From Chara braunii (taxonomy: Eukaryota > Plantae > Charophyceae), in assembly GCA_003427395.1 (NCBI GenBank), contig BFEA01000010.1, positions 7,052,077 through 7,116,076 of the forward strand: a DNA stretch of 64,000 nucleotides, given 5' to 3'. Both the position numbers and the translations under genes were made by a program. Under the pieces are notes generated by a model. The model worked only from the letters and a program-made list of their open reading frames with translations. It ran no database searches and had not been told where the DNA came from. Of the stretch, positions 15,270 to 63,606 are shown piece by piece. Each line of letters starts with the position of its first letter. Position 1 is the stretch's first letter.

Positions 15270-15550
15270 GCATCTGTCTTTGAGGAGGGAGGAATTAGCG
15301 TAAAACAGCAGGAATCTGGCGCCATCTGTAGGGTGAAGAGATTTTTCCCCCCTCTTTTTTCAAGAGCCTTCTCAGTCAATCCCCTGAACCCAGGGTAATC
15401 AATGATGACAGGCATCCCCAAAATCGTTTCAGATACGCCTCATACTCAGACTGTATAAGGGACGCTGGACCCGTTTTCCAGCAGGTGAAGCTCCCCACCA
15501 ATAGATGGAGGCGCCCTCCAGGTGAAAAAAAAAAAAAAAAAAAAAAAAAA
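15270..15550 (+). mobile_element. 3' tail of an L1/Tx1-type LINE with poly(A); 5' limit uncertain (may extend to ~14600)
   Basis: Similar to the 3' UTR of the LINE at 24162-28590. Conserved terminal motif 15452-15510, poly(A) 15525-15550. Confidence 0.7.
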
Positions 15551-15735
15551 GTAGATTATCCCTTTCATCATTCCCGTCCTCATTTCCCCGCATGTTAGGA
15601 CATTATTGTAGATGTTGAGAAAATAGGGGCTAATAGCCTCCCATGCTGAAAAAGTTCGATAGGAAGACCATCGTCCTCTGGACACTTCCCTGTTGCCATT
15701 TGTTTGGCCGCCCAGTGAAGTTTTTCCTGTGTGAT
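15551..15735 (-). pseudogene. LINE-A RT N-terminal fragment (part left of the Penelope insertion)
   Basis: Minus strand reads ITQEKLHWAAKQMATGKCPEDDGLPIELF, then (frameshift) WEAISPYFLNIYNNVL..GMMKGII. This is the L1-type K.PG.DG motif. Confidence 0.75.
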
Positions 15736-16037
15736 GTGCATGATGGTTGAAAATCAGTTTATCGAGTTCTTGGGGGCGAACAAGCGACTGATTATGGGTA
15801 AGCGATATATTGACGACTTGTTGATTATTTCTTTGTTTCGAACCTCGGATGAGCAAGGGGCATCCAAAGCCGAACGGTATCTTAATAGCGTGACGAAGTG
15901 TTATCCGGACGGCCTAGTGCTTGAACGAACAGACCCGGGTATCGGCCTATTGGATTTTCTAGAAACCAGGATGATGGTATGCGGGGCCAAGGTACTGCTG
16001 ATGTCCCACAAGTTCAAAAATGCAGGAACAATTTGGG
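15731..16037 (+). pseudogene. RT C-terminal fragment in the upstream pLTR copy
   Basis: MGKRYIDDLL...LDFLETRM, near-identical to 21681-21931; runs into a gap. Confidence 0.85.
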
Positions 16038-17916
16038 NNNNNNNNNNNNNNNNNNNNNNNNNNNNNNNNNNNNNNNNNNNNNNNNNNNNNNNNNNNNNNN
16101 NNNNNNNNNNNNNNNNNNNNNNNNNNNNNNNNNNNNNNNNNNNNNNNNNNNNNNNNNNNNNNNNNNNNNNNNNNNNNNNNNNNNNNNNNNNNNNNNNNNN
16201 NNNNNNNNNNNNNNNNNNNNNNNNNNNNNNNNNNNNNNNNNNNNNNNNNNNNNNNNNNNNNNNNNNNNNNNNNNNNNNNNNNNNNNNNNNNNNNNNNNNN
16301 NNNNNNNNNNNNNNNNNNNNNNNNNNNNNNNNNNNNNNNNNNNNNNNNNNNNNNNNNNNNNNNNNNNNNNNNNNNNNNNNNNNNNNNNNNNNNNNNNNNN
16401 NNNNNNNNNNNNNNNNNNNNNNNNNNNNNNNNNNNNNNNNNNNNNNNNNNNNNNNNNNNNNNNNNNNNNNNNNNNNNNNNNNNNNNNNNNNNNNNNNNNN
16501 NNNNNNNNNNNNNNNNNNNNNNNNNNNNNNNNNNNNNNNNNNNNNNNNNNNNNNNNNNNNNNNNNNNNNNNNNNNNNNNNNNNNNNNNNNNNNNNNNNNN
16601 NNNNNNNNNNNNNNNNNNNNNNNNNNNNNNNNNNNNNNNNNNNNNNNNNNNNNNNNNNNNNNNNNNNNNNNNNNNNNNNNNNNNNNNNNNNNNNNNNNNN
16701 NNNNNNNNNNNNNNNNNNNNNNNNNNNNNNNNNNNNNNNNNNNNNNNNNNNNNNNNNNNNNNNNNNNNNNNNNNNNNNNNNNNNNNNNNNNNNNNNNNNN
16801 NNNNNNNNNNNNNNNNNNNNNNNNNNNNNNNNNNNNNNNNNNNNNNNNNNNNNNNNNNNNNNNNNNNNNNNNNNNNNNNNNNNNNNNNNNNNNNNNNNNN
16901 NNNNNNNNNNNNNNNNNNNNNNNNNNNNNNNNNNNNNNNNNNNNNNNNNNNNNNNNNNNNNNNNNNNNNNNNTGAAGGTCAAGGTGATGCTGGGGAGAAG
17001 GTGATTTCGCCATGATAATAAAACTCATGTCATCTTCTTCTTTTTGGAGTTCCATTGTCTTTGTGATGAATTAGAACCCTAGACTTGACTTTGCCGTGGC
17101 TTGGGAACGAGCCTAGGGTGCCGATCTACACACTGTTGAGAATCTCACAGTGGGAAAATCGTGCTTGTTTCGTGATATTATCATTACCACTACTATTGTT
17201 GTGGTGTTATATTTTTTCTCTGTAATGGTTGCCGTCCTTTTTTTACATGCTTTTGATTCATGTACATCGTGTTGTTATGATCATTAGAATCTTCGTATGA
17301 TTCCTTCTGGGGCGTGTGGGGGGCATTCGTCCGTGGGAGTATCTGTCTCCCTCTTTCTCAGAGCAACGTCTCAGGAACGGAAGGTAGTAAACGGGTGGAA
17401 CGGCCCGATCACGAAGTAGAGAGAAGTGCGGGCTTGAGTTTCAGACGGGCAGGTGGCGACTTCAAGGGCACGACACTGGTACTGGCGATTGATCAAACGT
17501 CCAAAACTCCCTTCCGAAGCTGCTGCCGACTGGCGCGCGGTATAGTGGCGCGCATGATGTGGTGGCGGAGGGCGTGATCCGGGAAGCTACGGTGCTTTGC
17601 TTACAGTGGCGTGAGCACCGTCTAGTAAAGTTGTAGCGTGACGAACAGGGCAATTGTTGTCAGTAGGGGTGTACATTGCGACACATCGTTCTGTCTCTGA
17701 CGATCGATCGGACTTCCAGGCCTACTTCTTGGATTTGCTACCGATAGAAGCGTGGGACGACGACGCGCGTAAGACGGTGGCAAGAAGCGTGATCCGTAGG
17801 GCATGGTGTTTTGCGTATGGTGGCGAGAGTGTCGACTAGTAAGCAGCTTTGAGACGAATTGTGCTATCGGTGTCAGTATTGGGTGTGGCGTTGCCATTGG
17901 CATTATACTAAGTCGT

Positions 17917-19409
17917 ATGTCAGGTCGTGGGAGGGGTAAAGCTGGTGGAAGGCGTGGCCGTTGGTCTAACTGCGGACGCTACTGGATGGCAGGCAGTGGC
18001 CCGAGCAGTAGCAGTGGGCAACCAGCAGCAAATCCAGCGCAGTACAATGGCGCGGTCCCAGTGGTGAATCCATATCCTCCGGGAGTAAACCCGGTGCAGT
18101 ATGCTGCACCATTCCAATGCGGTGATGCCAATTATGCTGCCACCCGCGGCCTCAGCCTCGACACCTCCAGCACCAATGCAGTATCAAGCAGTTGCACCTC
18201 AAGAGTCCCCCTGGGGAATGCAACCGTGGCAATGGCCAGCGCATGGGCAACAGGCAGGGCAGCCTCCTAGCACGCAGGCGGTGACCAGTCATCAACAAAG
18301 TATTCAGTCGCATCAGCAACCTTTGAACCGGCAGGCTTCCACCTCGCACAACACCAGAGTTGGGAACAATCCTAGGAAGGGCCCGGCGGCGAATTCCTTT
18401 CCTGGCCCGGGAAACCGGGCGTACTTTACGAAAGAGTACATGGACATTTTGGAGGATATCAAGATTAGCAAGGCGATTGAGGAAGCACGGAAGAAGATTG
18501 CAAGTGGTAGACGCGGTGGCGTTCGGATTGTGGAACTGCCTGACGAAGGTAGCAGATCGGAAGGTCGGTCTGCAGATAAGGCGCGATCCACCGACAAGAA
18601 TGATGAGATGAAAGCATGGGTGACATCAACTCTCGGTGACTCTCTCAAGCTCATTACGGAAAAGCTACAGGAGGTCGACCAAAAGGTCAAGCTTGCTGCC
18701 GCTGACAAGTCAGAGCTCGATAGGCTGCGGGAAGAGAAGGCCTTGAAGGAGAAGGGTAGCATGGACCCGGCGAGTAATGAAAAAAGGAAGAGAGGGGGGA
18801 ATGTACCCCAGCGGCAAATTCCCCTCGTATCAATCGGGTGAAGTCACTCACGCGTGGAAGTCGCAAGGCAAAGTTTTGCTCGAAGAGGATCGAGGTATCT
18901 TCCGATGAAGAAGAAACTGGCACGGTGAAGCAGAACCTTCAACCGAAGATGGACACAAGCAGTGAGTTAGCGGACATCAAGACAATGCTTGTTGCGCTCA
19001 TGCAGGGCATAGGGGACACTAAGGGAAAAGCACCTGTAGATGCACCTATGCCTGTGAAGACAGAAGCCAGTGAGGGATCGGAGGGTATGGAAGATGTGGA
19101 CGTGGTACAGAATGAGCAGAACGGAGAGGACGAGGAAAAAAGTGACGAAGGAGGGTTGGCAACATATATGAAGATGAGGCAAGAATCTATTGTTCCTTAC
19201 ATTACACTCGGGTGCAGGAACTTTGCAAGCAGAAGAACATCCAGTACTTCCGGAAGGATGCTGGGGCATGGGAACTTGCAAGACTTGACCTACAGGAATA
19301 TGCAGACACATTGAAGGAAGAGAAACCAGCACGTGCCGCTGAGTCTTCCAAGCTGACACGGTCCACTGGGACTGGTGCAGTACCCGACGACCCGGTCAAG
19401 GGAAACTGA
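17917..19409 (+). pseudogene. Penelope-element ORF1 (about 500 codons, 3 frameshifts): RG-rich N-terminus, P/Q-rich low-complexity region, coiled-coil, basic motif, small C-terminal helical domain
   Basis: Consecutive ORFs 17803-18270, 18101-18841, 18838-19314 and 19212-19409: MSGRGRGKAGGRRGRW; PMQYQ..QQ; LKLITEKLQEVDQKVKLAAADKSELDRLREEK; KRKRG; YTRVQELCKQKNIQYFRKDAGAWELARLD; ends VKGN*. Confidence 0.7.
19400..19409 (+). other. Candidate -1 ribosomal frameshift site G GGA AAC followed by the ORF1 stop
   Basis: ORF1 frame: AAG GGA AAC TGA. The -1 frame GGG AAA CTG AGT... is the GIY-YIG/RT frame. Confidence 0.6.
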
Positions 19410-21931
19410 GTTGGGGCTCCCTTCGTGCATTACGTCGCGCAGCGAATCGAATCAGGAAACTGAAGGGCGTTGCAGATATTGCTACGCGCGGGCTCCTCGA
19501 TCGAATCCACGTCCTTGTCATCCTGCTTGCTTGCCTTAGAAACGAGATAGCATGGGGGCGGGTGTACTTACGATTCTGGCTCAGAATGCCTAGTAGTGCA
19601 TGGAATAGTCTGTTAGAAGGGCGTGAGTGTGTGTATGTNCTCATGTCACTATGTCATAAGGCTGTGTATGTGGGGAAGACCACCGACACACTGTGAGAGC
19701 GATGGTCTGAGCACTGCAGAGTTGTCAAGGGCATCAGGAAGCAAAAAGTCCATGTGTGGTTACGGAAAGTTGGTGGTGAGCATTACGTCCCGATAACGAT
19801 TTGGTTCGGGGATGGATTGATGATAGATACAATGGAACAGACAGTCATTAGCGACTGTAACCCCGGATTGAACGCTCGTGGCACAAAGTGTGGGAAGAAA
19901 GCACGAAGAATGCGTGGGAAGAAGAAGTCACAACTATGTAGGCAGTTGCCTGCCACAGATATTGTCGAGCCATCGTTTTTTGATTGCCCAGCTGTTGAAA
20001 TAAGACATGAACCAGATCTGCTCAAAATCTTTAAACTTATTAGTAAAGGCAAAGTGAAGAAAGGGATTATAATCTCAGACGGAAGTGGTGGGAGATGGTT
20101 AAAGGCGTGGCGTTTGGTTGTGTTGCTGTTTGGGTTTTCTGAAGTGGAGATCCGTGGAGAGGTGCTCCTGTTAAAAGATGCAAAGACGACTATTGAGCAT
20201 GGTGGAGATATGCAGATTGTCGAAATAATCCGCACTAAAACCAAAACCGATTTGTTGAAACACGAGCTTGTGGCACTTCTCAGAGCACCGTGGAAACGTC
20301 GTGACTTGTATAAACTAGATCTATCGCGACTCATTGAGCTGAACAACGCGGTTAAAACAGTGAACCAGCATCGGGGCAGGCAGATCATCCGCGGGGTCCT
20401 CACAAATGTCTTCAAGATGAAATTTGGTATTAACCCTCGTGTAAATGTGGTTGTTAAGTTACCATTTTTTACAATAATTGATAAAAGGAAGGTTGAACTG
20501 GAAATAAAGTCTTGGATTTCGGATACCATTCGACCACAATCACTGGGTAACCTGTATGCAAGGAGAACAAAGGCAGTTTGGCTTAAAGCCAAATCTGTCG
20601 GGGATCTACTGCATAATCATAAGTCATACGTACGATAGTCTTGTTTTAACTGTGTTTGCGTAGACTTTGACTTGCCTAAAGTCAATGGGCATGTTGCGGT
20701 GAAACTCAATGAGGTGGAGGGGATGCATCCGTTTTTGTTTAACGCCAAAAATGTTTCGTTCCCTGGTTCTCTGGCATCCAGGGAAGCGCTTAACCTCGCA
20801 TGTAATAATGTCATTGAGTGTTTGCAGACAAAGGGCATGGCATATCCCCAGATACATATTGATTATCGTCTGGTATCACGTCCAAAAGAAAAAATGCCAG
20901 AAGGGAGTGTGTTGTGTGAGTATGTGAAAGGGATACGGCAAGTGCTGGAAGGCCTTGTTAGATCCCCTTTAGACCGAAATACAAGTGAGACATGGCTTGA
21001 ATGCCCCCTGTCTTATGAAGCCGGTCTAAGGAAGATGTTTCTTGAGAATGAGAATTACGAGTCTATACCTGTGCCTAAACAAGATGTTTTGACCAAAATG
21101 AAGGAGGAATATAAAAAGGCGGGTTTTCTTGAGCTCGGAAGATGGGACGACAAAGGGGACTTGCAGCATGCATATATCATCTCAAAAGAGAAAGACAAAT
21201 GCAAAAAGCGGCCTATTGTACCGTCCTATATGAGTCCGTTCAAGATGGCCTCTGGCATTTTGTCGACTGCCTTGAATGAACTCATCCGTAGAGTTAAAGA
21301 ACCACACTTTAACTTGAGAGTCATTGACAAGTTAAAAGAGGAAATTACAAAGATCAACGAGTTGCCGGAAGTGAAGAAAGGAAACCTTGGTATCATAGCT
21401 CGCACCTATGACATCAAAGAAATGTTCACCCAACTTCCTCACACTGCAATTTAGAAGGCGGTTGCTTGGATTGTGGATTGCTTTCATTCCAAATCAATCA
21501 AATGGATCAGAGTTACTCAAAGAAAAAAGGAAGCACGCTTTGGGAAATCGCACGGGGAAACTGGTTGGAAGTCTGTTCGATTAAAAACGATGATCGGGTT
21601 AGCAGAATTTCAATTAGACAGTGCTTCGACAAAAGAAGGGAATACCCATGGGAGGCAGGGCGAGCCTGCCTCTCGCCTGTGTGATGTGCATGATGGCTGA
21701 GAATCAGTTTATCGAGTCCTTGGGGGCGGACACGCGACTGGTTATGGGTAAGCGATATATTGACGACTTGTTGATTATTGCTTTGTTTCGAACCTCGGAT
21801 GAACAAGGGGCATCCGAAGTCGAACGGTATCTTGATAGCGTGACGAAGTGTTATCCGGACGGCCTAGTGCTTGAACGAACAGACCCGGGTAACGGCCTAT
21901 TGGATTTTCTAGAAACCAGGATGATGGTATG
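19400..21931 (+). pseudogene. Penelope-element ORF2: GIY-YIG endonuclease + reverse transcriptase (in-frame stops at 19694, 20636, 21452; frameshift ~21620; C-terminus in gap)
   Basis: CVYxL..AVYVGKT....R..EH (19628-19711) and E....PGLN; CxC..NGH; PLDRN; RT motifs K.KD..KRPIV, YDIKEMFTQLPH, QKKGIPMG, RYIDD, LDFLE. Confidence 0.88.
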
Positions 21932-22900
21932 NNNNNNNNNNNNNNNNNNNNNNNNNNNNNNNNNNNNNNNNNNNNNNNNNNNNNNNNNNNNNNNNNNNNN
22001 NNNNNNNNNNNNNNNNNNNNNNNNNNNNNNNNNNNNNNNNNNNNNNNNNNNNNNNNNNNNNNNNNNNNNNNNNNNNNNNNNNNNNNNNNNNNNNNNNNNN
22101 NNNNNNNNNNNNNNNNNNNNNNNNNNNNNNNNNNNNNNNNNNNNNNNNNNNNNNNNNNNNNNNNNNNNNNNNNNNNNNNNNNNNNNNNNNNNNNNNNNNN
22201 NNNNNNNNNNNNNNNNNNNNNNNNNNNNNNNNNNNNNNNNNNNNNNNNNNNNNNNNNNNNNNNNNNNNNNNNNNNNNNNNNNNNNNNNNNNNNNNNNNNN
22301 NNNNNNNNNNNNNNNNNNNNNNNNNNNNNNNNNNNNNNNNNNNNNNNNNNNNNNNNNNNNNNNNNNNNNNNNNNNNNNNNNNNNNNNNNNNNNNNNNNNN
22401 NNNNNNNNNNNNNNNNNNNNNNNNNNNNNNNNNNNNNNNNNNNNNNNNNNNNNNNNNNNNNNNNNNNNNNNNNNNNNNNNNNNNNNNNNNNNNNNNNNNN
22501 NNNNNNNNNNNNNNNNNNNNNNNNNNNNNNNNNNNNNNNNNNNNNNNNNNNNNNNNNNNNNNNNNNNNNNNNNNNNNNNNNNNNNNNNNNNNNNNNNNNN
22601 NNNNNNNNNNNNNNNNNNNNNNNNNNNNNNNNNNNNNNNNNNNNNNNNNNNNNNNNNNNNNNNNNNNNNNNNNNNNNNNNNNNNNNNNNNNNNNNNNNNN
22701 NNNNNNNNNNNNNNNNNNNNNNNNNNNNNNNNNNNNNNNNNNNNNNNNNNNNNNNNNNNNNNNNNNNNNNNNNNNNNNNNNNNNNNNNNNNNNNNNNNNN
22801 NNNNNNNNNNNTGAAGGTCAAGGTGATGCTGGGGAGAAGGTGATTTCGCCATGATAATAAAACTCATGTCATCTTCTTCTTTTTGGAGTTCCATTGTCTT

Positions 22901-24158
22901 TGTGATTAATGACCTGTCCAAATCTATTCTTCATGTTGTTGATAATAAGTGACCATTGGAAAATTTTCAAAAATCAGAGAACTCTCGTTGGTCTGTAGAA
23001 AAGCCTTCGAAAGGCCTGCGCATGGATAAAATATCCTGGAAATATAGCCAGGCATACTCGCACATTTCTTCTAATTTGTTGGAAACCTGACGAGCTACAG
23101 TGAAAGGGTGTGCAAGTTGTCGCATGGGGTCTTTTGTGGACTGCAAAAGGAGGCGCCTAAAAGTCTCCTTAGTCATGCGGTTGCCCGCTATAATGTTATA
23201 GTGGGACAACCAGTTCTTCCACTGTTCCTGTTGTCTGATCTCCAAGGCCTCCAACTGTTGGATCGATCTCTTTCGGATTTTCGTCCAATAAGCATCCGAA
23301 ACGGGATGTTTGCCAAACTCATCCTATGCTCTTTTGATTTTTTTTAGGAGTGTTTGTTCTTCTTTCTTTTTATTAATTGATTTATTTGTGAAAGGTTATT
23401 CAGAGAGCTCTGAAGAATTCGTAATTCCACTTCTGTTCATTCCTCATCTGAGGAGAAGAGGTATCTGGTTCCGTTAGGTAGTGCTTAATTCGTACTACCA
23501 TGTCCGGATCCTTCAAATGGTTAGTATTAAGCTTAAAATAGGAAGGGTCGAAGCTCTTCTGTCGGGAAATTCTAAATCTGCAATCAAAGGGGAATGATCA
23601 GAAACATACGAAAAATTTTGTTCCACCTTTGTGCAGAGATCCCATGGTTTACCTTTCATCGGGATGAAGTCCAGGCATTTCCTCACCGGAGGAGATTGAG
23701 ACCCGAACCAAAGTATACCCTGGATCCTCTGGGTTCAACACCCGAAAAGCATCCGTTAGACCTTGGTTTATGCTAAATGCCTTCAGTAACCTTGTGTCTG
23801 TTCTGATACGTTCTGGTTTTGGGCTGTCCATACCTGGATTCAGGACCGTGTTCCAGTCTGCTGCGATTATCAAGTTTGGAGAGTTAGGGATACAATTTGT
23901 GAGCTCCGAGATAAAGGTAATTCTTTCCTGATAATTCACTGGTCAGTAGGCAGACATAACGGACCAATCCTCAGTTCCAAATAAGAATTTGACCCAAACC
24001 CAACTCCCCCAAATGTCAATCATATAATCAATGATCTTTGCGTCCAACTTCTGGTGGAAAAGGATTCCCACTCCTCCTCTAGTTCCCTGCTCTCCCTCAC
24101 CACCTTTAGCAGGCCTCCAGAATTGGGGACCTGTCCACCACGATTTTGCCTCGTTGAT

Positions 24159-24160
<2 letters not shown>
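22901..24160 (-). pseudogene. LINE-A APE endonuclease and linker fragment (L1/Tx1-like)
   Basis: LIIAADWNTVLNP, LTDAFRVLNPEDPGYT, PSYFKLN, EMCEYAWLYFQDIL, DLDRSLIT. Cut at 24160 by the poly(A) of LINE-B. Confidence 0.8.
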
Positions 24161-24193
<33 letters not shown>

Positions 24194-24351
24194 GCTCCGT
24201 CTATTGGTGGGGAGCTTCACCTGCTGGAAACCGGGTCCTGCGTCCTTGTACATCAAGATTAGTCACAAAAATCACACGAGAGCATTCCGCCAGCATTGAT
24301 TGCCCCAAGTTACCCTGGGGATTAACTGAGAGGTTAGGAAAACTTGGAGAC

Positions 24352-25821
24352 GTTCAGTTCATGTAGCTCAGTGGTTAGAGCACCGGTTGGAAATGCGCAT
24401 TGTGGTATGAGGTTTCTGGTTCAAAACTCCACAGCCTCGTGCATGGACACCGGCAGGGCGTTAGAATGATGCACGGCTGGACACACATTCCCCTGGGCTG
24501 ACGCCTGGTACTATTACAGACACTGCCTGCACACCACCTAGGGGGCCAGTCCATGGGTGTTGTATGCTGGTCTAGAGTTCACGTTGGTTGCTTGTTGTTG
24601 TTGGCTTTGGTCGCTCTGATAATCTCCCCCAGCCTACATATTTCACACATTCTATTCACTTCCTAAGGTAGTGCATGTGGTAGAACCCTCCAGTCTCATA
24701 CTATAGGTTACAGGTTCGAGTCCGGTCTTGGACTTTGGGATGGGTCCTGTCCAGATAGGCGTGTCTCTACCGCATGTTACATCACACACATGATAGACAC
24801 CACCCACATACGAGACACTACCCCAACTTCACACACACACACACATGATAGACACTACCGAAGATACTGACTACAGGTATAACCACGATAAGCTGATCGG
24901 AGGGATGAGGTTGGGGGCTAGTGGAAGGACGGATAATGGCCCACCACTTACTGAGTCTGTAGTCTGTCCCTTCCTGATCCTTATAAGAAGTACCTGGCCG
25001 ATGACCGGATTCTGCTTATAGGTGGGAGACAGTCTCTACTGAGGATAGAGCAAGTAGGCATGGGGTCCTTTAGGGGGGGAGGAGCCTCAGCCGATGATCG
25101 GATCTGGAGGAGGGTTGTCTATTCGTTGGCAACAGATTAAGGGCGCATAGGGTCGCCCCTCCGCTGCGTCGAGGCAAGGTGTTTCTAGGGCGCCTATACA
25201 TACTACCTACACATGGCTCACACATGCACTGGTAGAGGTGATACGAGCACCTCTCACTAGTATTCTCTTCGCAGATGCTCCGCGGTGGGGAGCAGCGTCA
25301 GCCACGGGTCCATGCACATTACAAACATACACATAGCCTATAGGCACACACCTATAATACCGAACACACACACATGCTTAACCATAGGGGCTGGGAGGAG
25401 GTCACGACCAACTAATAATAAGCGTCTCGATGATAAGAGAGGGCGTGAGTTACTAGTTGGTCTACTTAGGGGCTAATAGGTGATTGCTTGAGCCTGGCGT
25501 CCGAAGTTCCCGTACGACGAGGCTCGTTCGACTGCGCTTCCACCAGGGCTGGGTTACTAGCCCTGGTGCCTGTCACTACTATTCGGTCCAAGTTCCCCTC
25601 GATGGTAGGGTAATGGTCCTGAGTGCTGGTCACACTGAGGTAGGACAGTAGGAATAGGGGGTGCGCTAGGAGTATCGACGTGGGGATGGGATGGGAGGTA
25701 GCCCCGTCTCTTCAGGGCAATCATGGCTGACAACTTCCGGCGATCAATATGAGCCTAGTAACTGGCCTCTACAACACCCTGGACTTTTAGGGAACAAAAA
25801 AAAAAAAAAAAAAAAAAAAAA
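24352..25821 (+). mobile_element. Long (1.47 kb) tRNA-derived SINE-like retroposon
   Basis: A box TAGCTCAGTGG (24364-24374), B-box-like GGTTCAAAACTCC (24418-24430), poly(A) ending 25821. 16-bp TSD aggaaaacttggagac (24336-24351) / aggaaagcttggagac (25822-25837). No long ORF. Confidence 0.88.
24661..24733 (+). other. Second, internal tRNA-like module of the SINE (CAT anticodon-like loop); probably not a functional tRNA
   Basis: TAGTGCATGTGGTAGA A-box-like, CTCATAC loop, GGTTCGAGTCC B box (24713-24723), partial acceptor pairing tcctaag/cttgga. Confidence 0.6.
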
Positions 25822-28589
25822 AGGAAAGCTTGGAGACAGAATGGCATCTTCACCCCTTTAAACAGGGCGCCTCTTCTAGCTTGGTATGTCTAGCACTTTC
25901 CATCTCCATGAGCGTGAGAATAATGTAATTTTGTAAAGAAGATGAGTAATGTATAAGGTCTTTTGCTGGTAGATGCTGTCTGTTCCTTCCATCTCGTCCT
26001 AGCCAAACTCCCGAACTTCATGTGCTCCCATAAACGCCATTGAAGTTGTTCCCCCCCGGGAGGCACCGGGGGTGATGGATGGTGGGTCTTGTCTCGCGGC
26101 AGCAGCTGTGATCACATCTGAACTTCTGCCAGGGAAAGGGGGTGGGGTGGGAAAGGGTCAGGGAAATCTGATGGTGGTCTCATTGGGAAGGAGGGTTCAA
26201 TAGTGGTCCAGTCATTGAATATTAAACGGTAGTCCCTGGGTGGGCCCTGTCTCGCTGAGTCACCCTGGTCACCCCCCCATTCAACCCGAGCTATCCACCC
26301 CTCCCGTTGGCCCCCTAGCCAGTCCATGCAGAATGTTGTAATTGCCTGCTTAATGTCATGTTCGGTCTGAAAGATGTCAAGTCGTAATTTGAGGGTTTGC
26401 CATCTGCGTATTAATTCCAGTTGGACTTGCTCTTTGATTTGCTCTATTAGCTCAGACCCCTCTATTTTCACTCCTTCCAGCGCCAGGAGGCAGCGTTGCC
26501 ACCAAAGGGCCCAGAGAATTGATCGCCTTCCTAGACTGTACAGGTTGTTTATGAAGTTAGGGGAGACCGCCATTGCTGGACAATGTCCTGTTAGTATGGA
26601 CTGCCAGGACCATGGCCAGTGGGTGTTTGACACTATTTTTGCGCCATATGCGGTCCCACCATCGCCACGTAAATAATGCCACCGGGCATTGCATAAAAAT
26701 ATGTTCTATAGTCTCCTCCCGCTTGCGTGATGAAAAGGCGCTTATGCACCTTTGGCACCACGGGAGTGCCTTCCCTTTTTGTTCAGGCAGGTGTGGTCGA
26801 TCAACCAAGCATTTGTCGGAAGGCAGCGATGCACGATCTGCCATTGTAAGGACGTGACCTTCGCCAGTCTAACTTTACCCTCTTGGAACCATCGGATGGG
26901 TGTAAGGAGAGCCCAATCAACATTAAGGTGTCTGGCCCACCTGTCAATGATCCGGTCACGTTGGGGTCTTTTGGGTCGGAGCATCCTATACATGGATTTG
27001 ACCGATAGATTATGAAGCTGGACTGCTTTTCGAGGTACGGCGGTTGGGCCTCTGGCTGTCTACCATTGCCATTCATGGGGCTCAATGGGCAGATCCTGGA
27101 TGGGCGTCCGGGGCTGGAAGGGGATGGCCTCGTCCCCTTCTCCTATCACCCTTATTCAGAACAACCCAGTTTTTATCCCACCATTGAAAAGGGTCGCAGG
27201 ATTCTTGGAGTGTGCCCCTTGGGCCTATCTTAAAGTGTTATACCAGTACATCCGAGGGACGTGTCATGTGGACTCTGCCAATCTGATTTAGGTCCCCTGG
27301 CAGGGTGACCCAGTCTCCTTCCTGTAGTGTGGGCCCTCTCTTCAGCAGTCTGTACCGTGCTAGCGGGACCGCCTCAATGATCATTTTCAGGTGACTGTCT
27401 GTGTGGTGGCAGTACCGGAGGGTATCATGAAGTTGGGTTGCTGTCTTCCAGTCGTTCCTTTCGTTGTCCCATAGGTGGCCGACTCGAAGTACCCCATGTT
27501 TGACCCATCCTTTCCATGGGGCCACAGAGCTACAGAGAACTCGACCATGGCGGGGTGCAATCCTCCGATTTTCGAAGAGGGGCTGACGGTAAACCTCTTC
27601 CCACCGCTCCAGGTTTTGTGCATCAAGGAGGGGGTGATGACTCCAACTCTTCAAGAGTGTGGGCCAAAGTTTTTCCACCGGACTGCCTTGGATTTTGCGG
27701 GGGATCGACCAGTAGCGATCCTCCAGCCATGTTAAGGGGTGCATCGCTGCAGGGGTCGATGGGGCCAAGCGGGCGATGTGCTCAAGAGCCAAGGTCTGCC
27801 AAGGGCAATCTGCAGCGAATATAAGTTTTTCCAACCACTTTAGGCGGAGAGCTTGGGTCTGTGTTGGCGGGTCTATAATTCCTAGGCCTCCCCCCGTTTT
27901 TGGTTGTACGATTGTTTCCCACGCCACCCGACTAATTACATTGGCTCGTTCGTCATCCCCCCGCCATAAGAAGGCTACAACCTTGGCTTTGAGGGTCTGG
28001 TAAGCAGCTTTGCTTAATTGCCATAGAACCGACTTATACCACAATGTGGCAAACATAACATTGTTAATCGCCAGTGTGCGGCCGAAGATGGAAGTATGTT
28101 TGTTCCGCCACTTGGCCAATTTGGCGAGTGTTGGTGCACAGATCCAGTCGTCGTTGGTCTAGGGAAGCCCTAGGGCCGTCATGGTGACCCCTAGGACACA
28201 GATTGGTGCTTCCAGAGGAAGCCATGATATCCTGGGAGAGTCCGACGGGCGTCCCCCTTGGTGGTGGATCCACCATCCTTGGGTTTTACTCCCCCAGTTC
28301 ACCACCATGTCAAAGACCTGAGTGAACATGTCCATTAGTCTTTCGATTTCCTCCACATTTTTTTGTGTGGCATCGACCATAATCGTGACGTCATCCACAA
28401 ACAGGGAACACACCGAAATGGCCTCATCGGGAATCCTAGCAATCCTGACTCTAGCAATGTCTCTGTTGGTTCGGAGGTTCGCCGACAGGGATTCCGTGAT
28501 GACAAGGAAGAGGAAGGGCACAATTGGATCACCTTGCCGGACCGATTTCTCAAGTCGGATTGGGGGTGTCAGGAAGGGGAAGGTGGTGG

Positions 28590-29373: not shown

Positions 29374-32300
29374 AGAATCATTAAAGAATGCAATCATCAA
29401 ACATGGCAATGCAAGGAAGCAACTGACTGACTCAAGCAAAGACAAAGTCAGATGAGGGAAGAATGAGAACTCATAATAGTCTCAAAGAGTACATATGGAA
29501 GAGAGCATGGCCGGCACCAGTCCGGAGTCCTCACTCATCCCTCTGAATCTCTCACTCGCTTTCTCACTTTGTTGTACGTTTCTTGTGCCTCGAGCCATGT
29601 CCCCGTACTTTCTGAGTCTGTGACCTCTGAATGTAGACACCTGAAGCCTGCTAGTTCCGAGCACTTCCATCCAAGTCCCATGATACGGAAGTCAACCGTG
29701 GCATAAAACTCCTCTAATAGTGTAGGAAGGTATGGCTGGGAGAAGATACCCCGTCTGAGATGTGGGAACTCGGAAGGTTCGGTCACTGCCTCGTAATCGA
29801 TCTTTGCAGGAGAGATGTACCTCTTGGCCAAATTAATCAGGTCACNCCAGTGAGAGTCGTCTGTCAGAGTAAAAGGTACTGGAGGTCTGGGATAGTCGGA
29901 GTAGAGCTTTGGTCTGAAGCTGCGGATCAGCTTAGCACCGCTCTCATCGAGCTCCTTCTCTCTCTCCTCAAGGTACCCTGCGGCCACGGTCCAGACTGAG
30001 TCAAAATGCTCATGAGTCTCCTTGCCTTTCCTCAAGTAAGGTCTCAGGTCATGAACAGTTCCTTCTGCAAAGACAGTGAGGACAACGAAGATTGACAGAT
30101 CCTCCCATTTGAAACCCACGACACTAACATACTGGTAATGAAAGGCCTCCTTGAGCGCAATCTGATTAAGGGTTGTCAGAACCGACTTGCTGACGGAGTG
30201 AGACTGAATTGTACTCATGTGGTGAGTTGGATGCTAGAATCGACCTCTATGTCCTTTTGTAATGTCTGATTCTCAGATTAATACTGATCTCTGATGCAAT
30301 TAAGAAAGAATGAATATTGACTGAGTGTTGATTTTATGTTAGTTGGACACTTACGGGATAGTGAATCACTAGTCTCTTAGCACTCAGACGGTCGGAAAAG
30401 ATTGCAGACCTCGAGGTGGCACTAGAGAACTTGAGTTGCCAGTTGATTTCTGACTGAAGGTTTCAAGTAATTCGAACGATTAAATGTAGATTGAATGTTG
30501 GCTGAGTGACGATCAGTCTTTGCAGAAATTCCTGGGTAGTTCGAACAACCAGACTGCACTCGTGCACAGGCGTGAGTATGGGGGGCATGTCTCTGTGTCC
30601 ATCGTTGGGCAACATGGTCTGAATTGATACTTTTCTCCAGCACGAGTGGTAGATGGATACAAAAATGAATAAATAACATCTGACCCTGAATTGAGAATTT
30701 TTTGATCGCCCCTTTCCTGTGACTCCGTGTTATTGAGTAGATAGGTCACTAAGTGTCACTCATCTTGCGTGCCACTGAATGCAGTTTATCCATTCAAGGG
30801 GGCGGGGATTGTTGAACGTTGCTCACCTGATGGCACAACATAGTACCGTTCACTTAGTAGCGTGACACTGAGTGAGGGAACACAAGCAACTGAGCGTTAC
30901 TTCAAGTTTTTAACCAGTTATGGTTGCCGAGAGAGAGGGTCGAGCACTCCTAAGCCCTCTAGGGACCCCCTCCTGGCCTGTTCAATCACCTCTAGATATG
31001 AGTAGGTTCCGAGCAGTTTTCCATCAGGTCCATAGGATCGTATAGTATATTTAATGCTTCTCTGGGTTTTTACCAATTTTAATGCAAGTCTCTCATTAAC
31101 CTTATGTGACACTCGAGATCTTTGGGTGTTTCTTCCTTCCAAGCCCCTCGATTTATATTGATAGAGTGCAAGGGATATCAAAAAACCTTTTTCGCCACCC
31201 ATGCTTATTCCATGCTATTTTCCCGAGCAGCCTGTCGGGTATAAAAAAAAAAAGGTTTTGATTGCTTTCCGCACCGAGCTTAGTCATCAACGACTTGCTC
31301 CTCCACGGTACATCTGCCAGGACCGTTCCTTAGTCCAATTGGAGATTGCAGAAGCTCCCCTAGTCACCAGTACCTTCAACGGTGTATAACATTACCAAGT
31401 ATAACCCTTTTCATATTGTTATTCGAAGTTCAATCCTAAGGTGTGACACTACAGGCGGTGGTATCTGTTGAGTGATGAAGCTCTGTTGGGAAGATCAGAC
31501 GATGACTGAGTAAAGGGAGCTGAAGCAGGGTGGCCCCGACTCTACAACGGCTCATAGGGTCAGGGCTAGTCCCCTCAAAGTAGATCACTCCCCACAAATT
31601 ATGAGTAGTGATCCCTCGGTGTCTGCATGCGTTAGGTGCAGCATACGGCGTCGACAGGGTTGCAAGCAAAACACATCAGACAACAAACTCAACTTAAATG
31701 ACTCATGAAGAGCTGGCTAGCACGACCCATAACCAAAATTGGTACAGTACCTCTTTTGGTTGGCATCCTCGCCAATACACGGGGAAATGATGTCAAACCA
31801 AACGTGACTAGATGATTATATGAGGCCGTTGGAATAATGCATAAGACTCCGTTTCCGAGTATTAGATCATTTGATGTCCACTCTCGCGAGTTCGCTTTCA
31901 ACTCGTTCTCACTTCCCCGATAAAAGTCAATTGTCATAAAATAAAACAGAATGAAACAAAATAAAACAAAATTAAACACAATCAAGGGCTGCAATCATCA
32001 GCAGCGTATGACCATCACCTCTCAGAGCACTGATCCACACTTAGTATTCCTAGGCACTTTTACTAAGTTCACTCCCTTCCCAACCTGAGACGCGTGGGAA
32101 CTTTCGGTCACCAAGCTAAACTCAGTTTTTTGTGCTCATCTGACTTCAAGGAACTGTCAGCAGTCAAAATCGGTGCCAATCACTTATGACTGCGACTGTC
32201 TCGAGCAACTACAGCCAAAGATCATATTACTTTTAGTCACCATCCAACAGATACTTTGCCAGTAGGTAGGCGATCCTACGAGATGATGATGATCTACTAC

Positions 32301-35300
32301 CCATCAGGGGTAACGACAAAAAAAAAGGACAACGAAAACCGAAGGAAACACGCTCAAATAGGGCCCTTTTCAGGATCAACTCATACAGTTTTCATTGGAC
32401 TTTGTCACATTTTACTTCTCACCATGAACGTGTTGTATAAATCTGAGACTTGTGACACTATCTGCCCGTTTTAACAGGCACCACTTCGACGGCAAGTCCA
32501 CCGAAAACACCAAAAGAAAACATGGGATGAACTCAACTTTGCATTTCGAGTGACGTACAAACTGACAGGGGAAATACTAATTACTGTAATTAAAATTGAC
32601 TTATGTATTACAAAATTATGTGTCAGCTCAAGTTGGTCGTACCCTCTTCACCGAAACTAGAGCACGCATAACACATGGATGACCAGAGTCGTTAATGACT
32701 CATCCGCTTGACAACCATGTTTACTTGGTTTCGTGGTTTTACCTTACAGTCAGTGTTCAAGTCCCTTATCCAGAAGAATACACCAGAACTATAGGGAGCT
32801 TCATAATAAAGGACCCTGTACAACGTTCTTCGTTGTCCATTATCACTGTTAACTGTGATAGAGGGAGAGATGGGAAAGACACGCAGAACGAGCCAAGTGC
32901 AGGTCCGAGTAACCTCAAACACAACTATTCCATATTACTAACCGTTAAACCTTATTCGTTCCTGGCAGCATCAAACCTTCTCAGATCACTAACTTGCGTT
33001 CGGGTTGTCTTGACGAGGCGGAGCCATGGACAATGAGTTCGACTAGTTTGTGTCGGGATTTTTAGTGATGTCAATAAGATTGCTTCCCTCCCTCCTTTAC
33101 ATGAGTGCGCGTCGACACGGTGCACAAAGATCCTCTCGCAAAACAAACCTCACACAAGTACCTATCCTCCTCCGCACGTACATTGTCATGGCCTCAATCG
33201 CTCAGTCGTTTCAAGGAATCGTACCGCCTCATGGCACAACCGGAAAAGATGAGTAACAACTCTTGTACTAAGGGACAACTTCTTGGAAAGTTTCTCGTTT
33301 CCTCCCGTAGATTGCTCGCACAAGCTAGTCCCTTCTCTTACCAGCACTCGACTAGGCAAGGCATAGTTTCCCTTATATCAAACAACGAAGTCATTCGCAC
33401 CGAGTTGGCGGTGTCAACAAAGAAACACAGAAGCCCCCCCCTCTCTTCCTCTTCAGACAACAGTAAGGTATGACCCTGATTACTCTCGCGGAGTGGGAGA
33501 TGAGCAGCAAGCCCCTCCTCCGTTCAAAGGTCAGAGTGGGAATTTGTGAGACTGTTAGCAAGGATCGAGGTCTGACGAGACAGAAGGCACCAGGGAAAAG
33601 AAGGTAGCTAGCGTCAACCGAGGCACCCAGTCTTCAAAGCGTGCAAGGTTCTCGCTACCCTTACTTCCACTCCATGCCCACACGCGCTCAAACCCTCGTC
33701 ATAACTACTAGGACGGAAGCCATCCCCCTTTTCTTTGACGTCTGAGGAACAAGCTCTCCTTCACCAGGTATGCAACAGGCATCCCGGTTAGCAGACAACA
33801 TCAATAATAACATCATAGCTCAGGGGCAACCCCGTTCTCTCTCTCTGTATCTGACCCCACTCGCACTCCCTCTCATCTTCTCTCTTCTCCTAATCGTGAC
33901 TACATGTCTCTTCGTCAGTGATGATGTCAACGGCGAAGCTGTACATGTGTCTCTCTCTCTCTCGTCTAATTCACCTCTTCCGTTCTTGAGCGTGCCCTTC
34001 GCACGAGCAGCCGTCCCGTAACTGCCTCACGACCTACTGCCCATCTCGACTCTGGGCCGAGCTGACTTCTTGGCCGTATTCCCCTGTCCCCGCCAATGGG
34101 TGGTTCTTCTGGATCTGATCCAGCCCATGCCAGGACTGGGTCTGATCCTCCCGGTCGCTAGCCTCGCTTTCTGCCTCGGAGTCACGGTCCAGGTGTTGCT
34201 GCTCCCGTTCCGCTGTATCAGGCGAAGTCCCCGCCTCTAGGTACGATACGGTCACTTTTTATTCGTCCGTGACTCCATCCCTTCTACACCTTCTTTTACA
34301 CGCGGTCCCTGGCCTCTGTAATTGCCATCTGCAGGCCTGGGTCCGCCCTCATCTCTTCCTCTTTTCCCCCTTCTACATTTATCTTTAGTTTCGCCTCTTG
34401 CCTGCCGTAGCTGTAGTCCAGCACGACCGTCACAGTAGGCCCTTCGCCGGACATCCACTCCTATTTCCACAGAAACTGAAGGCACCTTGGCCTATACCCA
34501 TACAGCCCACTGTTGTGTACCATAGTTGCACCCCCCCCTTTTTGATAGGTAATATATGGAACTTGGACACCGACCCTAGAAACACTCTGGGCTTAACACT
34601 CCCCGCACGCGCCTTCGGCATAGTGCGTCACTTCCGCCCAGTCGCTCAGCCCTCTCTTCAATTCACCAACGAGTAGCGAGGAGAGGCTACCAATGGCCGG
34701 GTAACCAGAAGCTCATCTCCTTCTCCTTTATACGATCGCCATTTGCCGCGACCCCGACGTTCTGAACGAGGGATCCAAACAAACTTCTCAGGATTACACC
34801 CCCTTTTGATTTTGTAATTGCACAAAAAAAATATTAAGGCAGTACGCCTACGGTTATAGGGCCTGCTATTGAGTGAAAAGACCGCAAGACTTAGCGCGGT
34901 GGTCCCATAACGGGATACTGACTGACGCTCTTGTCCCTTTAAAATGAGTCGTCGGCCTAACTCTATCGGGTACCCGTGCCCGATGGCAAGGAGGGGGCTT
35001 ATGACCCTCCATGGGGGGTAATAGGCTCCCTACCGATGCGGTTGTGGGTCGCCCCTCTTTTGGGGTTCCGCTGAGCGATGCTCAGCCGGACAGATCGACT
35101 ACCGGGCGATACGTGAAAAGTCGGCCATTCCAGGCCACCAAGCGCCAATCGGGGTTCAAAAATGGACCGCTCGCGCTCCTTCCCGCGAAGTGACGGAAGG
35201 TCAAGAGAAAAAACAAACTCCAAAAACAACTAATAAATTTAACTAGGATAATAATAACAATAATAATATTAATAAAAGTAAAAATAATAATAGAAAGAAA

Positions 35301-35815
35301 TCATAACACTGTGGCCAGAGGTCACTAGATCGTCTCAAACAGAAGTGGGGGCCCAAATCCGTGCGTAGGTCCGACACTTAACTTCCCTTTTCTCTTCTTA
35401 CCCCCTTTCGCCTTTTTCTTTCTTTTCCTTTTACCTCCTTTCTGTTTCACTGTAACAGTTGGTCTTCATATCTAACCCATAACCTGGCAGAGGGCACTCA
35501 GTGCGCACTAGAAAAGACCGCGGCTGTCCCTCTACCTTCGCGTCCCTCGGCGAACCCAGCGGCTACCACGGCCACAGGCCGGTAGTGCCCTGCTGTACAG
35601 CAGGGTGCCGAGCCTGCGTGGACCAATGGAAAGCCCAGTGGCGCACTCTTTTTGCTGAGGGAAGGCACCAACTGGGCTAATCCATTGCTAGGTACGACTC
35701 AAGCATTCTAAGAGCATTGAAGAGGTTCGAGAATACGCAGACAAGAGTGACATCTATGTAAGGGCTGGTACTAAACAGGAACTTGGTAAACAGAGGAGGG
35801 TCGGGACATCGCGCC
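29374..35815 (-). repeat. 3' LTR copy (outer end lost in the gap; inner end uncertain)
   Basis: Matches 47043-53343 (offset 17669 at the start). Homology stops after gacatcgcgcc. Confidence 0.85.
29535..30218 (-). CDS. 227-aa hypothetical ORF embedded in the 3' LTR
   Basis: Open ATG-to-stop ORF (one ambiguous base) with globular-protein composition; shares motifs with the pre-gag repeats. Confidence 0.6.
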   Translation of the reverse strand: MSTIQSHSVSKSVLTTLNQIALKEAFHYQYVSVVGFKWEDLSIFVVLTVFAEGTVHDLRPYLRKGKETHEHFDSVWTVAAGYLEEREKELDESGAKLIRSFRPKLYSDYPRPPVPFTLTDDSHWXDLINLAKRYISPAKIDYEAVTEPSEFPHLRRGIFSQPYLPTLLEEFYATVDFRIMGLGWKCSELAGFRCLHSEVTDSESTGTWLEAQETYNKVRKRVRDSEG

Positions 35816-46757: not shown

Positions 46758-49700
46758 TGTCGCACTTTTTTTAGTCGAGCCACTTTGGGTGACCGAAAAG
46801 TCAAGAGGTTGTCACGCAGGATTTTGAAGTTGATTGCAAAAAAAATAAAATTAAATTAAATAATGCAAATCCCTTCTTGTTGTGTGCGTCTTGCTTCGAG
46901 CGAGACCCTTCAATTGCGATCTTCGCCGGTCCCCGGTCTTCGAAATCTTTTATTTTGATTCGGAACAGCAAAGAATCATGCACATAATAATAGAGTGTTA
47001 TGCATGCATCAATTGTGTCAATCTGATTTTGAAAACTGTGACAGAATCATTAAAGAATGCAATCATCAAACATGGCAATGCAAGGAAGCAACTGACTGAC
47101 TCAAGCAAAGACAAAGTCAGATGAGGGAAGAATGAGAACTCATAATAGTCTCAAAGAGTACATATGGAAGAGAGCATGGCCGGCACCAGTCCGGAGTCCT
47201 CACTCATCCCTCTGAATCTCTCACTCGCTTTCTCACTTTGTTGTACGTTTCTTGTGCCTCGAGCCATGTCCCCGTACTTTCTGAGTCTGTGACCTCTGAA
47301 TGTAGACACCTGAAGCCTGCTAGTTCCGAGCACTTCCATCCAAGTCCCATGATACGGAAGTCAACCGTGGCATAAAACTCCTCTAATAGTGTAGGAAGGT
47401 ATGGCTGGGAGAAGATACCCCGTCTGAGATGTGGGAACTCGGAAGGTTCGGTCACTGCCTCGTAATCGATCTTTGCAGGAGAGATGTACCTCTTGGCCAA
47501 ATTAATCAGGTCACNCCAGTGAGAGTCGTCTGTCAGAGTAAAAGGTACTGGAGGTCTGGGATAGTCGGAGTAGAGCTTTGGTCTGAAGCTGCGGATCAGC
47601 TTAGCACCGCTCTCATCGAGCTCCTTCTCTCTCTCCTCAAGGTACCCTGCGGCCACGGTCCAGACTGAGTCAAAATGCTCATGAGTCTCCTTGCCTTTCC
47701 TCAAGTAAGGTCTCAGGTCATGAACAGTTCCTTCTGCAAAGACAGTGAGGACAACGAAGATTGACAGATCCTCNCATTTGAAACCCACGACACTAACATA
47801 CTGGTAATGAAAGGCCTCCTTGAGCGCAATCTGATTGAGGGTTGTCAGAACCGACTTGCTGACGGAGTGAGACTGAATTGTACTCATGTGGTGAGTTGAA
47901 TGCTAGAATCGACCTCTATGTCCTTTTGTAATGTCTGATTATCAGATTAATACTGATCTCTGATGCAATCAAGAAAGAATGAATATTGACTGAGTGTTGA
48001 TTTTATGTTAGTTGGACACTTACGGGATAGTGAATCACTAGTCTCTTAGCACTCAGACGATCGGAAAAGATTGCAGACCTCGAGGTGGCACTAGAGAACT
48101 TGAGTTGCCAGTTGATTTCTGACTGAAGGTTTCAAGTAATTCGAACGATTAAATGTNGATTGAATNTTGGCTGAGNGACGATCAGTCTTTGCAGAAATTC
48201 CTGGGTAGTTCGAACAACCAGACTGCACTCGTGCACAGGCGTGAGTATGGGGGGCATGTCTCTGTGTCCATCGTTGGGCAACATGGTCTGAATTGATACT
48301 TTTCTCNNGCACGAGTGGTAGATGGATACAAAAATGAATAAATAACATCTGACCCTGAATTGAGAATTTTTTGATCGCCCCTTTCCTGTGACTCCGTGTT
48401 ATTGAGTAGATAGGTCACTAAGTGTCACTCATCTTGCGTGCCACTGAATGCAGTTTATCCATTCAAGGGGGCGGGGATTGTTGAACGTTGCTCACCTGAT
48501 GGCACAACATAGTACCGTTCACTTAGTAGCGTGACACTGAGTGAGGGAACACAAGCAACTGAGCGTTACTTCAAGTTTTTAACCAGTTATGGTTGCCGAG
48601 AGAGAGGGTCGAGCACTCCTAAGCCCTCTAGGGACCCCCTCCTGGCCTGTTCAATCACCTCTAGATATGAGTAGGTTCCGAGAAGTTTTCCATCAGGTCC
48701 ATAGGATCGTATAGTATATTTAATGCTTCTCTGGGTTTTTACCAATTTTAATGCAAGTCTCTCATTAACCTTATGTGACACTNGAGATCTTTGGGTGTTT
48801 CTTCCTTCCAAGCCCCTCGATTTATATTGATAGAGTGCAAGGGATATCAAAAAACCTTTTTCGCCACCCATGCTTATTCCATGCTATTTTCCCGAGCAGC
48901 CTGTCGGGTATAAAAAAAAAAAGGTTCTGATTGCTTTCCGCACCGAGCTTAGTCATCAACGACTTGCTGCTCCACGGTACATCTGCCGGGACCGTTCCTT
49001 AGTCCAATTGGAGATTGCAGAAGCTCCCCTAGTCACCAGTACCTTCAACGGTGTATAACATTACCAAGTATAACCCTTTTCATATTGTCATTCGAAGTTC
49101 AATCCTAAGGTGTGACACTACAGGCGGTGGTATCTGTTGAGTGATGAAGCTCTGTTGGGAAGATCAGACGATGACTGAGTAAAGGGAGCTGAAGCAGGGT
49201 GGCCCCGACTCTACAACGGCTCATAGGGTCAGGGCTAGTCCCCTCAAAGTAGATCACTCCCCACAAATTATGAGTAGTGATCCCTCGGTGTCTGCATGCG
49301 TTAGGTGCAGCATACGGCGTCGACAGGGTTGCAAGCAAAACACATCAGACAACAAACTCAACTTAAATGACTCATGAAGAGCTGGCTAGCACGACCCATA
49401 ACCAAAATTGGTACAGTACCTCTTTTGGTTGGCATCCTCGCCAATACACGGGGAAATGATGTCAAACCAAACGTGACTAGATGATTATATGAGGCCGTTG
49501 GAATAATGCATAAGACTCCGTTTCCGAGTATTAGATCATTTGATGTCCACTCTCGCGAGTTCGCTTTCAACTCGTTCTCACTTCCCCGATAAAAGTCAAT
49601 TGTCATAAAATAAAACAGAATGAAACAAAATAAAACAAAATTAAACACAATCAAGGGCTGCAATCATCAGCAGCGTATGACCATCACCTCTCAGAGCACT

Positions 49701-52700: not shown

Positions 52701-53351
52701 GGTGATAGGCTCCCTACCGATGCGGCTGCGGGTCGCCCCTCTTTTGGGGTTCCGCTGCGCGATGCTCAGCCGGACAGATCGACTACCGGGCGATACGTGA
52801 AAAGTCGGCCAATCCAGGCCACCAAACGACAATCGGGGTTCAAAAATGGACCGCGCGAAGTGACGGAAGGTCAAGAGAAAAAACAAACTCCAAAAACAAC
52901 TAATAAATTTAACTAGGATAATAATAACAATAATAATATTAATAATAATAATAATAATAATAGAAAGAAATCATAACACCGCTGTGGCCAGAGGTCACTA
53001 GATCGTCTCAAACAGAAGAGGGCACTCGCCGCGCAGTAGAAAAGACCGCGGCTGTCCCTCTACCTTCACGTCCCTGGGCGAACCCGGCAGCTACCACGGC
53101 TACAGGCCGGTAGTGCCCTGCTATACAGCAGGGCGCCGAGCCTGCGTGGACCAATGGAAAGCCCAGTGGTGCACTCGTTTTGTTGAGGGCAGGCACCAAC
53201 TGGGTTAATCCATTGCTAGGTACGACTCAAGCATTCTAGGAGCATTGAAGAGGTTCGAGAATACGCAGATGAGACTGACATCTGAGTAAGGGTTGATACT
53301 AAACAGGAACTTGGTACACAGAGGAGGGCCGAGACATCGCGCCCTCCGACA
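46758..53351 (-). repeat. 5' LTR (~6.6 kb)
   Basis: Inner end fixed by the PBS (TGTCG on +). Candidate outer end CGACA at 53351 gives a 5-bp IR, but the other copy does not confirm it. Confidence 0.8.
47204..47887 (-). CDS. 227-aa hypothetical ORF embedded in the 5' LTR (copy of 29535-30218)
   Basis: Identical translation apart from ambiguous bases. Confidence 0.6.
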   Translation of the reverse strand: MSTIQSHSVSKSVLTTLNQIALKEAFHYQYVSVVGFKXEDLSIFVVLTVFAEGTVHDLRPYLRKGKETHEHFDSVWTVAAGYLEEREKELDESGAKLIRSFRPKLYSDYPRPPVPFTLTDDSHWXDLINLAKRYISPAKIDYEAVTEPSEFPHLRRGIFSQPYLPTLLEEFYATVDFRIMGLGWKCSELAGFRCLHSEVTDSESTGTWLEAQETYNKVRKRVRDSEG

Positions 53352-62386: not shown

Positions 62387-62394
62387 CTCCGCGG

Positions 62395-63565: not shown

Positions 63566-63567
<2 letters not shown>

Positions 63568-63606
<39 letters not shown>

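Follow-up and report, generated by a model that had tools for sequence, protein, structure and literature searches.

We analyzed a 64,000-nucleotide (nt) stretch of the Chara braunii genome (GenBank assembly GCA_003427395.1, contig BFEA01000010.1, positions 7,052,077 to 7,116,076; hereafter the window), which carries a decayed Penelope-like retrotransposon (PLE) of the Chlamys type with two open reading frames (ORFs). Chlamys PLEs are characterized by an N-terminal GIY-YIG endonuclease (EN) (Craig et al. 2021, PMC8557442). In the window element, whose features all lie on the plus strand, the endonuclease and the reverse transcriptase (RT) belong to an ORF2 that begins without an ATG, and we present evidence that ORF2 may be reached from ORF1 by a −1 ribosomal frameshift.

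The assignment to the Chlamys group is based on domain order, linker, and layout. The endonuclease core (19628..19768) was recognized by PF01541 (E 2.2e-5; the match passes the curated cut-off, the frame being read through with X), and the RT motifs follow downstream in the same frame. The stop at 19694 is specific to this copy, another base being present there in most of the contig depth. Chlamys endonucleases retain the residues R, H, E, and N but not the zinc-finger motifs of Naiad; by eye, these residues may correspond to ERWSEH, MEQ, and GLN here, and scattered cysteines occur near the core in this copy. The linker between endonuclease and RT contains CVC (20651..20659), an instance of the Naiad/Chlamys CxC motif as defined in PMC8557442. 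The PLE-type RT (21149..21931, DKG to motif E) shows the motifs DKG, KRPIV, YDIKEMF, GIPMGG, RYIDDL, and DFLET, with a weak RVT_1 match (E 0.1); it is interrupted by stops and one frameshift and runs into an assembly gap (21932-22811). A 5′-truncated copy lies upstream (15726..17066) and consists of the 3′ part of the RT, an assembly gap (16038-16972), and a 3′ end, giving the partial tandem or pseudo-long-terminal-repeat arrangement of Chlamys elements. The two copies are 95% identical between 15726-15981 and 21676-21931 and 99% identical between 16973-17071 and 22812-22910. They diverge beyond ~17066/22905, and the 3′ end of the element was placed at 22812..22905 by its identity to 16973-17066. 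Neither Rfam nor a core pattern revealed a 3′ hammerhead ribozyme in the two 3′ regions, both of which lie partly inside assembly gaps, and the Rfam scan gave no match.

ORF1 (17917..19409) was delineated by tblastn with the homologous proteins P0001, P0003, and P0005, which follow it through frames 1, 2, 1, and 3. The frame changes fall near 18100, 18800, and 19185, and at 19185 other copies have an extra base relative to the window copy. This copy is dead, with three frame changes in ORF1 and with stops and one frameshift in ORF2. The final ORF1 frame, which a first-pass annotation of the window had reconstructed, is borne out by P0001 and P0003, which align to 19185-19406 in that same frame at 75% and 68%. 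The protein has an Arg/Gly start, a Pro/Gln-rich region, a charged predicted coiled-coil-like region, a conserved C-terminal block, and an acidic tail. The block (19188..19320), recognized from its invariant columns, is weakly SAP/Rho_N-like with a helix-extension-helix pattern: SAP matched P0060 with E 0.08, and the structure look-alikes in the Atlas were SAP and Rho_N, all below naming thresholds. This is compatible with nucleic-acid binding, and ORF1 may be an RNA-binding particle protein. No homology of ORF1 to gag was shown, and no CCHC zinc knuckle was found in the ORF1 translation or in Pfam scans of ORF1 pieces or of P0003, P0047, and P0060. Residues 1-63 of P0003 align to 17803-17988 (54%), which points to a possible hydrophobic N-terminal extension from an upstream in-frame ATG (17803..17916). 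Through such an extension, a membrane-anchored or signal-like ORF1 isoform may exist in some subfamilies.

The junction between ORF1 and ORF2

ORF1 ends with AAG GGA AAC TGA (19398-19409). As the first-pass annotation had noted, the heptamer G GGA AAC (19400..19406), which has the form X XXY YYZ in the ORF1 register, directly abuts the ORF1 stop TGA (19407..19409), and the −1 frame is that of the endonuclease and the RT, to judge from the PF01541 match and the RT motifs within it. The same annotation correctly found this frame to be open from 19343, with its earliest ATG at 19586; the open stretch runs to 19693. The first 60 codons of ORF2 contain no ATG, and the ORF1 stop overlaps an ORF2-frame CTG (19406-19408). 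The heptamers G_GGA_AAC and A_AAA_AAC are among the most shifty for mammalian ribosomes (PMC5009743). Since 34 of the 5221 stop triplets in the window (0.65%) are abutted by such a heptamer, its presence in a single copy is only mildly unusual; the junction stands above chance because of its conservation in the family, not because of the window copy alone.

We propose that in active relatives of this element the ORF1-EN-RT fusion is made by −1 ribosomal frameshifting on G GGA AAC, and we give this reading a probability of about 0.65. Ribosomes would translate ORF1 and mostly terminate at its TGA, producing ORF1 protein in excess, and an occasional −1 slip on the heptamer would yield the rarer ORF1-endonuclease-RT fusion. 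The TGA right after the heptamer is a possible pause site; ribosomes might be held by a slow stop codon beside the heptamer or by some RNA element.

The N-terminal segment of ORF2 (19406..19585) contains a Trp, ~46 residues, and Trp-x3-Tyr-Leu, and resembles by eye the corresponding segments of the Chara elements Chlamys-2 and Chlamys-5. Because all three share a ~46-residue ATG-less segment between two Trp residues, the ORF2 start looks coding in each of them, and each would need a non-standard entry. Protein searches with the ORF2 N-terminus or the endonuclease linker retrieved nothing among 377 and 6813 candidates, a weak negative given that P0044, which matches at 59%, fell outside the length window of the larger search. 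Modeling of the ORF2 start by AlphaFold from a single sequence gave no usable structure (predicted local distance difference test score 39).

Conservation of the ORF1 end among homologs

Searches for ORF1 homologs yielded 85 proteins, and the 20 whose names were consulted are without exception hypothetical proteins of Chara braunii. The conserved C-terminal block was matched by 65 of the 85, and 48 reach its end with a tail of 20-55 residues; the 17 dropped either end in or just past the block (13) or continue into other predicted exons (4). As many as 32 of the 48 tails end in Gly-Asn-stop, an end expected from tail composition at 0.5%; Asn is the final residue in 38 and Asn or Lys in 41. The acidic tail is otherwise unconserved, the top residue accounting for 19-35% at positions −15 to −5. 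In the tree, which was built on 77 columns only, both branches of the deepest split (support 100/100) include proteins ending in Gly-Asn. For 31 of the 32 proteins with this end, the residue preceding Gly could be encoded by a codon ending in G, whereas 29% of tail residues are incompatible with such a codon (naive p 2e-4). Among P0011-P0085, dozens of Chara gene models represent the ORF1 of this transposon, and gene predictors have joined some of them (P0023, P0032, P0044, and P0073) to parts of long-terminal-repeat (LTR) pol or of EN-RT.

Decoding by hand of two models that finish in the +1 frame gave GCA GGA AAC TGA (P0054) and GCG GGA AAC TAG (P0073), and P0007 could be derived from a GGA AAC plus stop motif by loss of one base. 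GGA AAC may encode Gly-Asn throughout the family, although only these two to three other copies were decoded. The conservation of the site that the first-pass annotation had asked for holds at the protein level, and at the DNA level only in close copies and hand-decoded models. The departures from Gly-Asn favor ends able to stay slippery: Gly-Lys occurs in three proteins and Lys-Asn in two, where it could be A AAA AAC. The latter two belong to one clade with a single Glu-Asn end, and Gly-Ser, Gly-Ile, Ala-Asn, Arg-Asn, and Asp-Asn were also seen.

Searches for element DNA of divergent relatives found none in viral contigs and confirmed 0 of 76 stretches in genome contigs. The single metagenome locus confirmed among 83 (L001) was rejected as an unrelated bacterial membrane-enzyme-like gene adjoining iron-sulfur cluster genes.

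DNA and RNA copies of the junction

Contigs of sister copies were compared with the window over 18900-20100, substitution figures referring to the 40 of 279 rows listed. No frame-changing indel was listed among them between 19355 and 19477; an in-frame 6-base insertion occurs at 19354, and 4 bases are missing at 19478 in a single contig of each run. Likewise, on 19378-19500, 8 and 11 contigs were compared and no indel or joint was seen. The 13 changes listed in 19188-19409 include 10 that leave the ORF1 protein unaltered but only 1 that is synonymous in the −1 frame. Site 19397 carries C>T in one contig of run X1, in two contigs of run X4, and in 2/2 RNA reads, and the change is silent in ORF1. 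It affects the last −1-frame codon before the heptamer (19397..19399), which is CAA in the window copy and likely TAA in sister copies, provided that 19398-19399 are unchanged there. With a −1-frame stop just before the heptamer, the overlap of the two frames in those copies would shrink to the heptamer, and ORF2 could not be entered upstream of it. Two differences, placed by depth sums at 19430 and 19435 and both silent in ORF2, were seen in a contig of depth 21.5 that covers 19400-19465, so that its heptamer is intact.

These comparisons bear on another alternative, a one-ORF element in which the change of frame would have arisen by decay in the window copy. This copy does have several stops and no fewer than four further frameshifts. 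However, homologs down to ~24% identity to P0001 stop at the same Gly-Asn, and the true lesions at 19185 and 19694 do appear as differences in the contigs, whereas no indel is listed at the junction. We consider this alternative to have almost no remaining likelihood. Judged from the sequences, the junction is conserved and is not a product of decay, and the single continuous ORF that the first-pass annotation had named as a refutation is effectively ruled out.

A diverged 1-kb contig matches the window only at 19385-19452 (62/68, gap-free), both flanks being unalignable; by eye, its ORF1 is open upstream and a similar ORF2 peptide follows downstream. This suggests an island of nucleotide-level conservation at the junction. 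The same contig informs on a second, imperfect A GGA AAC TGA, which lies in the ORF1 register 54 nt (18 codons) downstream (19454..19463). The first TGA might be read through and the shift occur at this second site, or another recoding route might be used; the shared register and the Chlamys-5 junction, which by eye is an in-frame TGA, would agree with this. Yet the second site is not kept in the diverged contig (loose end at 19452), it may merely reflect Arg-Lys-Leu coding, and two rare events would be needed, which makes this route very improbable.

In the 12% of RNA run X6 that was examined, three reads cross the junction without interruption at 90-95% identity or less, in the orientation that would be sense in a usual stranded library; none came from X5 or X7. 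The X6 depth is too low to list joints or to exclude splicing.

Evidence against frameshifting, and possible other routes to ORF2

Several observations weigh against a −1 shift on this heptamer. The search profile contained the Gly-Asn columns, which introduces a slight bias. When kin are discounted, the codon test leaves 8 of 9 distinct residues compatible and 1 of 9 incompatible (p 0.21). The position of the heptamer in P0054 reads A GGA AAC, and P0040 ends in Thr-Asp-Asn, two changes from GGA. The four DNA runs containing the element all come from one sample, possibly the source of the window, and changes within 30 bases of a record end go unlisted, meaning that the heptamer was checked only indirectly. 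Of the variants in the ATG-less segment, 3 of 6 are synonymous in ORF2 and 4 of 6 in ORF1, which does not discriminate between the frames. No stimulatory stem or pseudoknot, expected 5-9 nt downstream of such a site, was found: 8 single-copy folds gave z −0.23 to +1.71, and a simple scan for H-type pseudoknots gave 0 candidates. By eye, the consensus of the related Chlamys-3_cBra has the non-canonical GGGAAGG at this place, and the Chlamys-2 (+1) and Chlamys-5 (single in-frame TGA) junctions do without the heptamer. Finally, Val, Ile, or Leu occupies position −4 in 42 of the 48 tails, which the heptamer does not explain and which points to a motif at the protein level.

The hydrophobic −4 position, together with Asp-rich positions −5/−6, would fit a functional C-terminal protein motif [VI]-x-G-N in ORF1; ORF2 would then be reached through splicing, since PLEs retain introns, or be translated from its own transcript with the ATG at 19586. 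Pyrimidine-rich AG sites exist at 19539 (12/15) and 19584 (10/15), and the Chara models P0023, P0035, and P0044 link ORF1 to ORF2 across predicted introns. These three models are, however, predictions that join at three different places, the segment that would be skipped looks coding and resembles by eye its counterpart in Chlamys-2 and -5, and the X6 reads run contiguously over the junction at their low depth. We regard this explanation as unlikely. A 2A-like peptide, considered from the D-[VI]-x-x-N spacing, was rejected because no Pro-Gly-Pro follows.

As for RNA structure, the first-pass annotation had proposed a stem between CCCTTCG and TGAAGGG (19419..19467). The complementarity is present, and the minimum-energy fold of 19407-19480 includes the stem. 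The structure is nevertheless not supported: z is 0.32 against shuffles, the pair probability is 0.02-0.08, and the diverged contig alters the 3′ arm with no compensating change listed. Two other candidates did no better than shuffles and were rejected, namely a pairing of GGGGCUC (19413-19) with 19490-96, in whose arm variants at 19416 and 19418 fall, and a hairpin over the heptamer and stop (heptamer with UCCCUU downstream, 19398-19423; z 0.55).

That no stimulator was found would also fit a model in which ribosomes terminate at the ORF1 TGA and start again at the CUG that overlaps it (19406-08) or at some other near-cognate codon. EN-RT would then be made as a protein of its own, with GGAAAC serving as start context. 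AUG-independent reinitiation is known for LINE-1 ORF2, the ORF2-frame CTG overlaps the stop with an A at −3, and register differences among related families fit a register-tolerant mechanism. Against it, reinitiation does not require Gly-Asn, as any C-ending codon would give CUG, and the TAG stop decoded by hand in P0073 would give CUA instead. We judge reinitiation about as improbable as a protein motif combined with splicing, and frameshifting on the heptamer remains our preferred reading.

Comparison with known elements

The layout itself is less novel than the first-pass annotation had supposed: the two-ORF arrangement was already known, since Craig et al. 2021 (PMC8557442) describe it for Chara Chlamys elements, along with ORF1 frameshifts in animal PLEs. 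In that work, Chlamys-2 and -5 of Chara braunii have an upstream gag-like zinc-knuckle ORF1 and a hammerhead ribozyme, and Chlamys-3 is set aside as "contains frameshift, no protein included". In the accessible text of PMC8557442, the word "slippery" does not occur, and no mechanism is proposed for the Chara two-ORF Chlamys families. We found no published report of frameshifting in Chlamys elements in the literature searched, which lacked most subscription papers, among them the Terminon and Athena papers.

By eye, the ORF1 and linker of the window element most resemble those of Chlamys-3. Chlamys-3_cBra has a knuckle-less ORF1 with PGNRAxFT-like and helix-extension-helix blocks and an acidic tail ending in Gly-x-stop, a −1 frame that is open after ORF1, and a similar endonuclease and linker. 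Its ORF1 consensus ends in Asp-Leu-Ser-Gly-Arg-stop, and its −1 frame has no stop for 40 codons and includes a helix-like stretch led by Trp, which speaks for a −1 entry. It differs from the window element in that GGGAAGG and in a shortened ORF2 start, and no recoding was proposed by its authors. Chlamys-2 and -5, about 5.3-5.8 kb long, share with the window element the upstream ORF1, the N-terminal GIY-YIG, the CxC motif, the RT, and a similar ATG-less ORF2 start. They have a CCHC zinc knuckle, which was not seen here, and a hammerhead ribozyme. By eye, their ORF1 stops lie within TGATG, the ATG of which is out of the ORF2 frame.

Since the Chlamys-2 and -5 registers differ and lack the heptamer, a −1 mechanism is not common to all two-ORF Chara Chlamys elements. 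Such differing junction routes favor recoding in general, disfavor one ancestral −1 signal, and keep register-tolerant alternatives alive. A tentative and rather doubtful extension is that the Chara two-ORF Chlamys elements independently evolved, within one algal genome, the full gag-pol-type range of recoding known from LTR elements and retroviruses: a large knuckle-less clade would shift by −1, Chlamys-5 would read through its stop, and Chlamys-2 would shift by +1. The −1 clade would then have swapped G GGA AAC for A AAA AAC in one subclade and would dispense with a classical pseudoknot, the adjoining stop and a motif in the nascent peptide perhaps driving the shift.

In animal PLEs, ORF1 can be separated from the RT by a frameshift that a pseudoknot accompanies (PMC8557442, Fig. 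1 legend). The window element differs from these in having an endonuclease between ORF1 and RT and in that no pseudoknot was found. We take the animal elements in question to be the endonuclease-minus Athena/Terminon clade; Athena/Terminon-type PLEs lack an endonuclease and are located at telomeres. The gag-pol −1 frameshifting of retroviruses and LTR elements, for example SRV-1 (PMC2995055), likewise uses an X XXY YYZ heptamer that ends the structural ORF and sets the enzyme ratio. Compared with these, the window element is a PLE of non-LTR type, has no protease or integrase, and has an ORF1 without gag homology and no stimulator that we could find.

Other features of the window

Two 6-kb direct copies (29374-35349 and 47043-53022; 96% identity) probably represent another young transposon family. 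A short repeat with an A-rich tail (15452-15550, 24163-24252, and 57362-57419) flanks the PLE in inverted orientation, and the minus strand of 22911-24160 seems to carry part of a further non-LTR element. A repeat of 250-360 bp occurs at 25328-25822 and 62394-63933 in inverted and tandem copies.

Discussion

If −1 frameshifting on G GGA AAC is indeed used, it would explain for the first time how two-ORF Chlamys elements express their ATG-less EN-RT, and gag-pol-like control of stoichiometry would extend to a plant-lineage PLE that bears an endonuclease. PLE particles built from surplus ORF1 protein would then be implied. The many natural variants of one shift site would allow tests of frameshifting without an obvious pseudoknot. 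The same reading would explain the dozens of Chara "hypothetical proteins" that end in Gly-Asn, which should be re-annotated as transposon ORF1.

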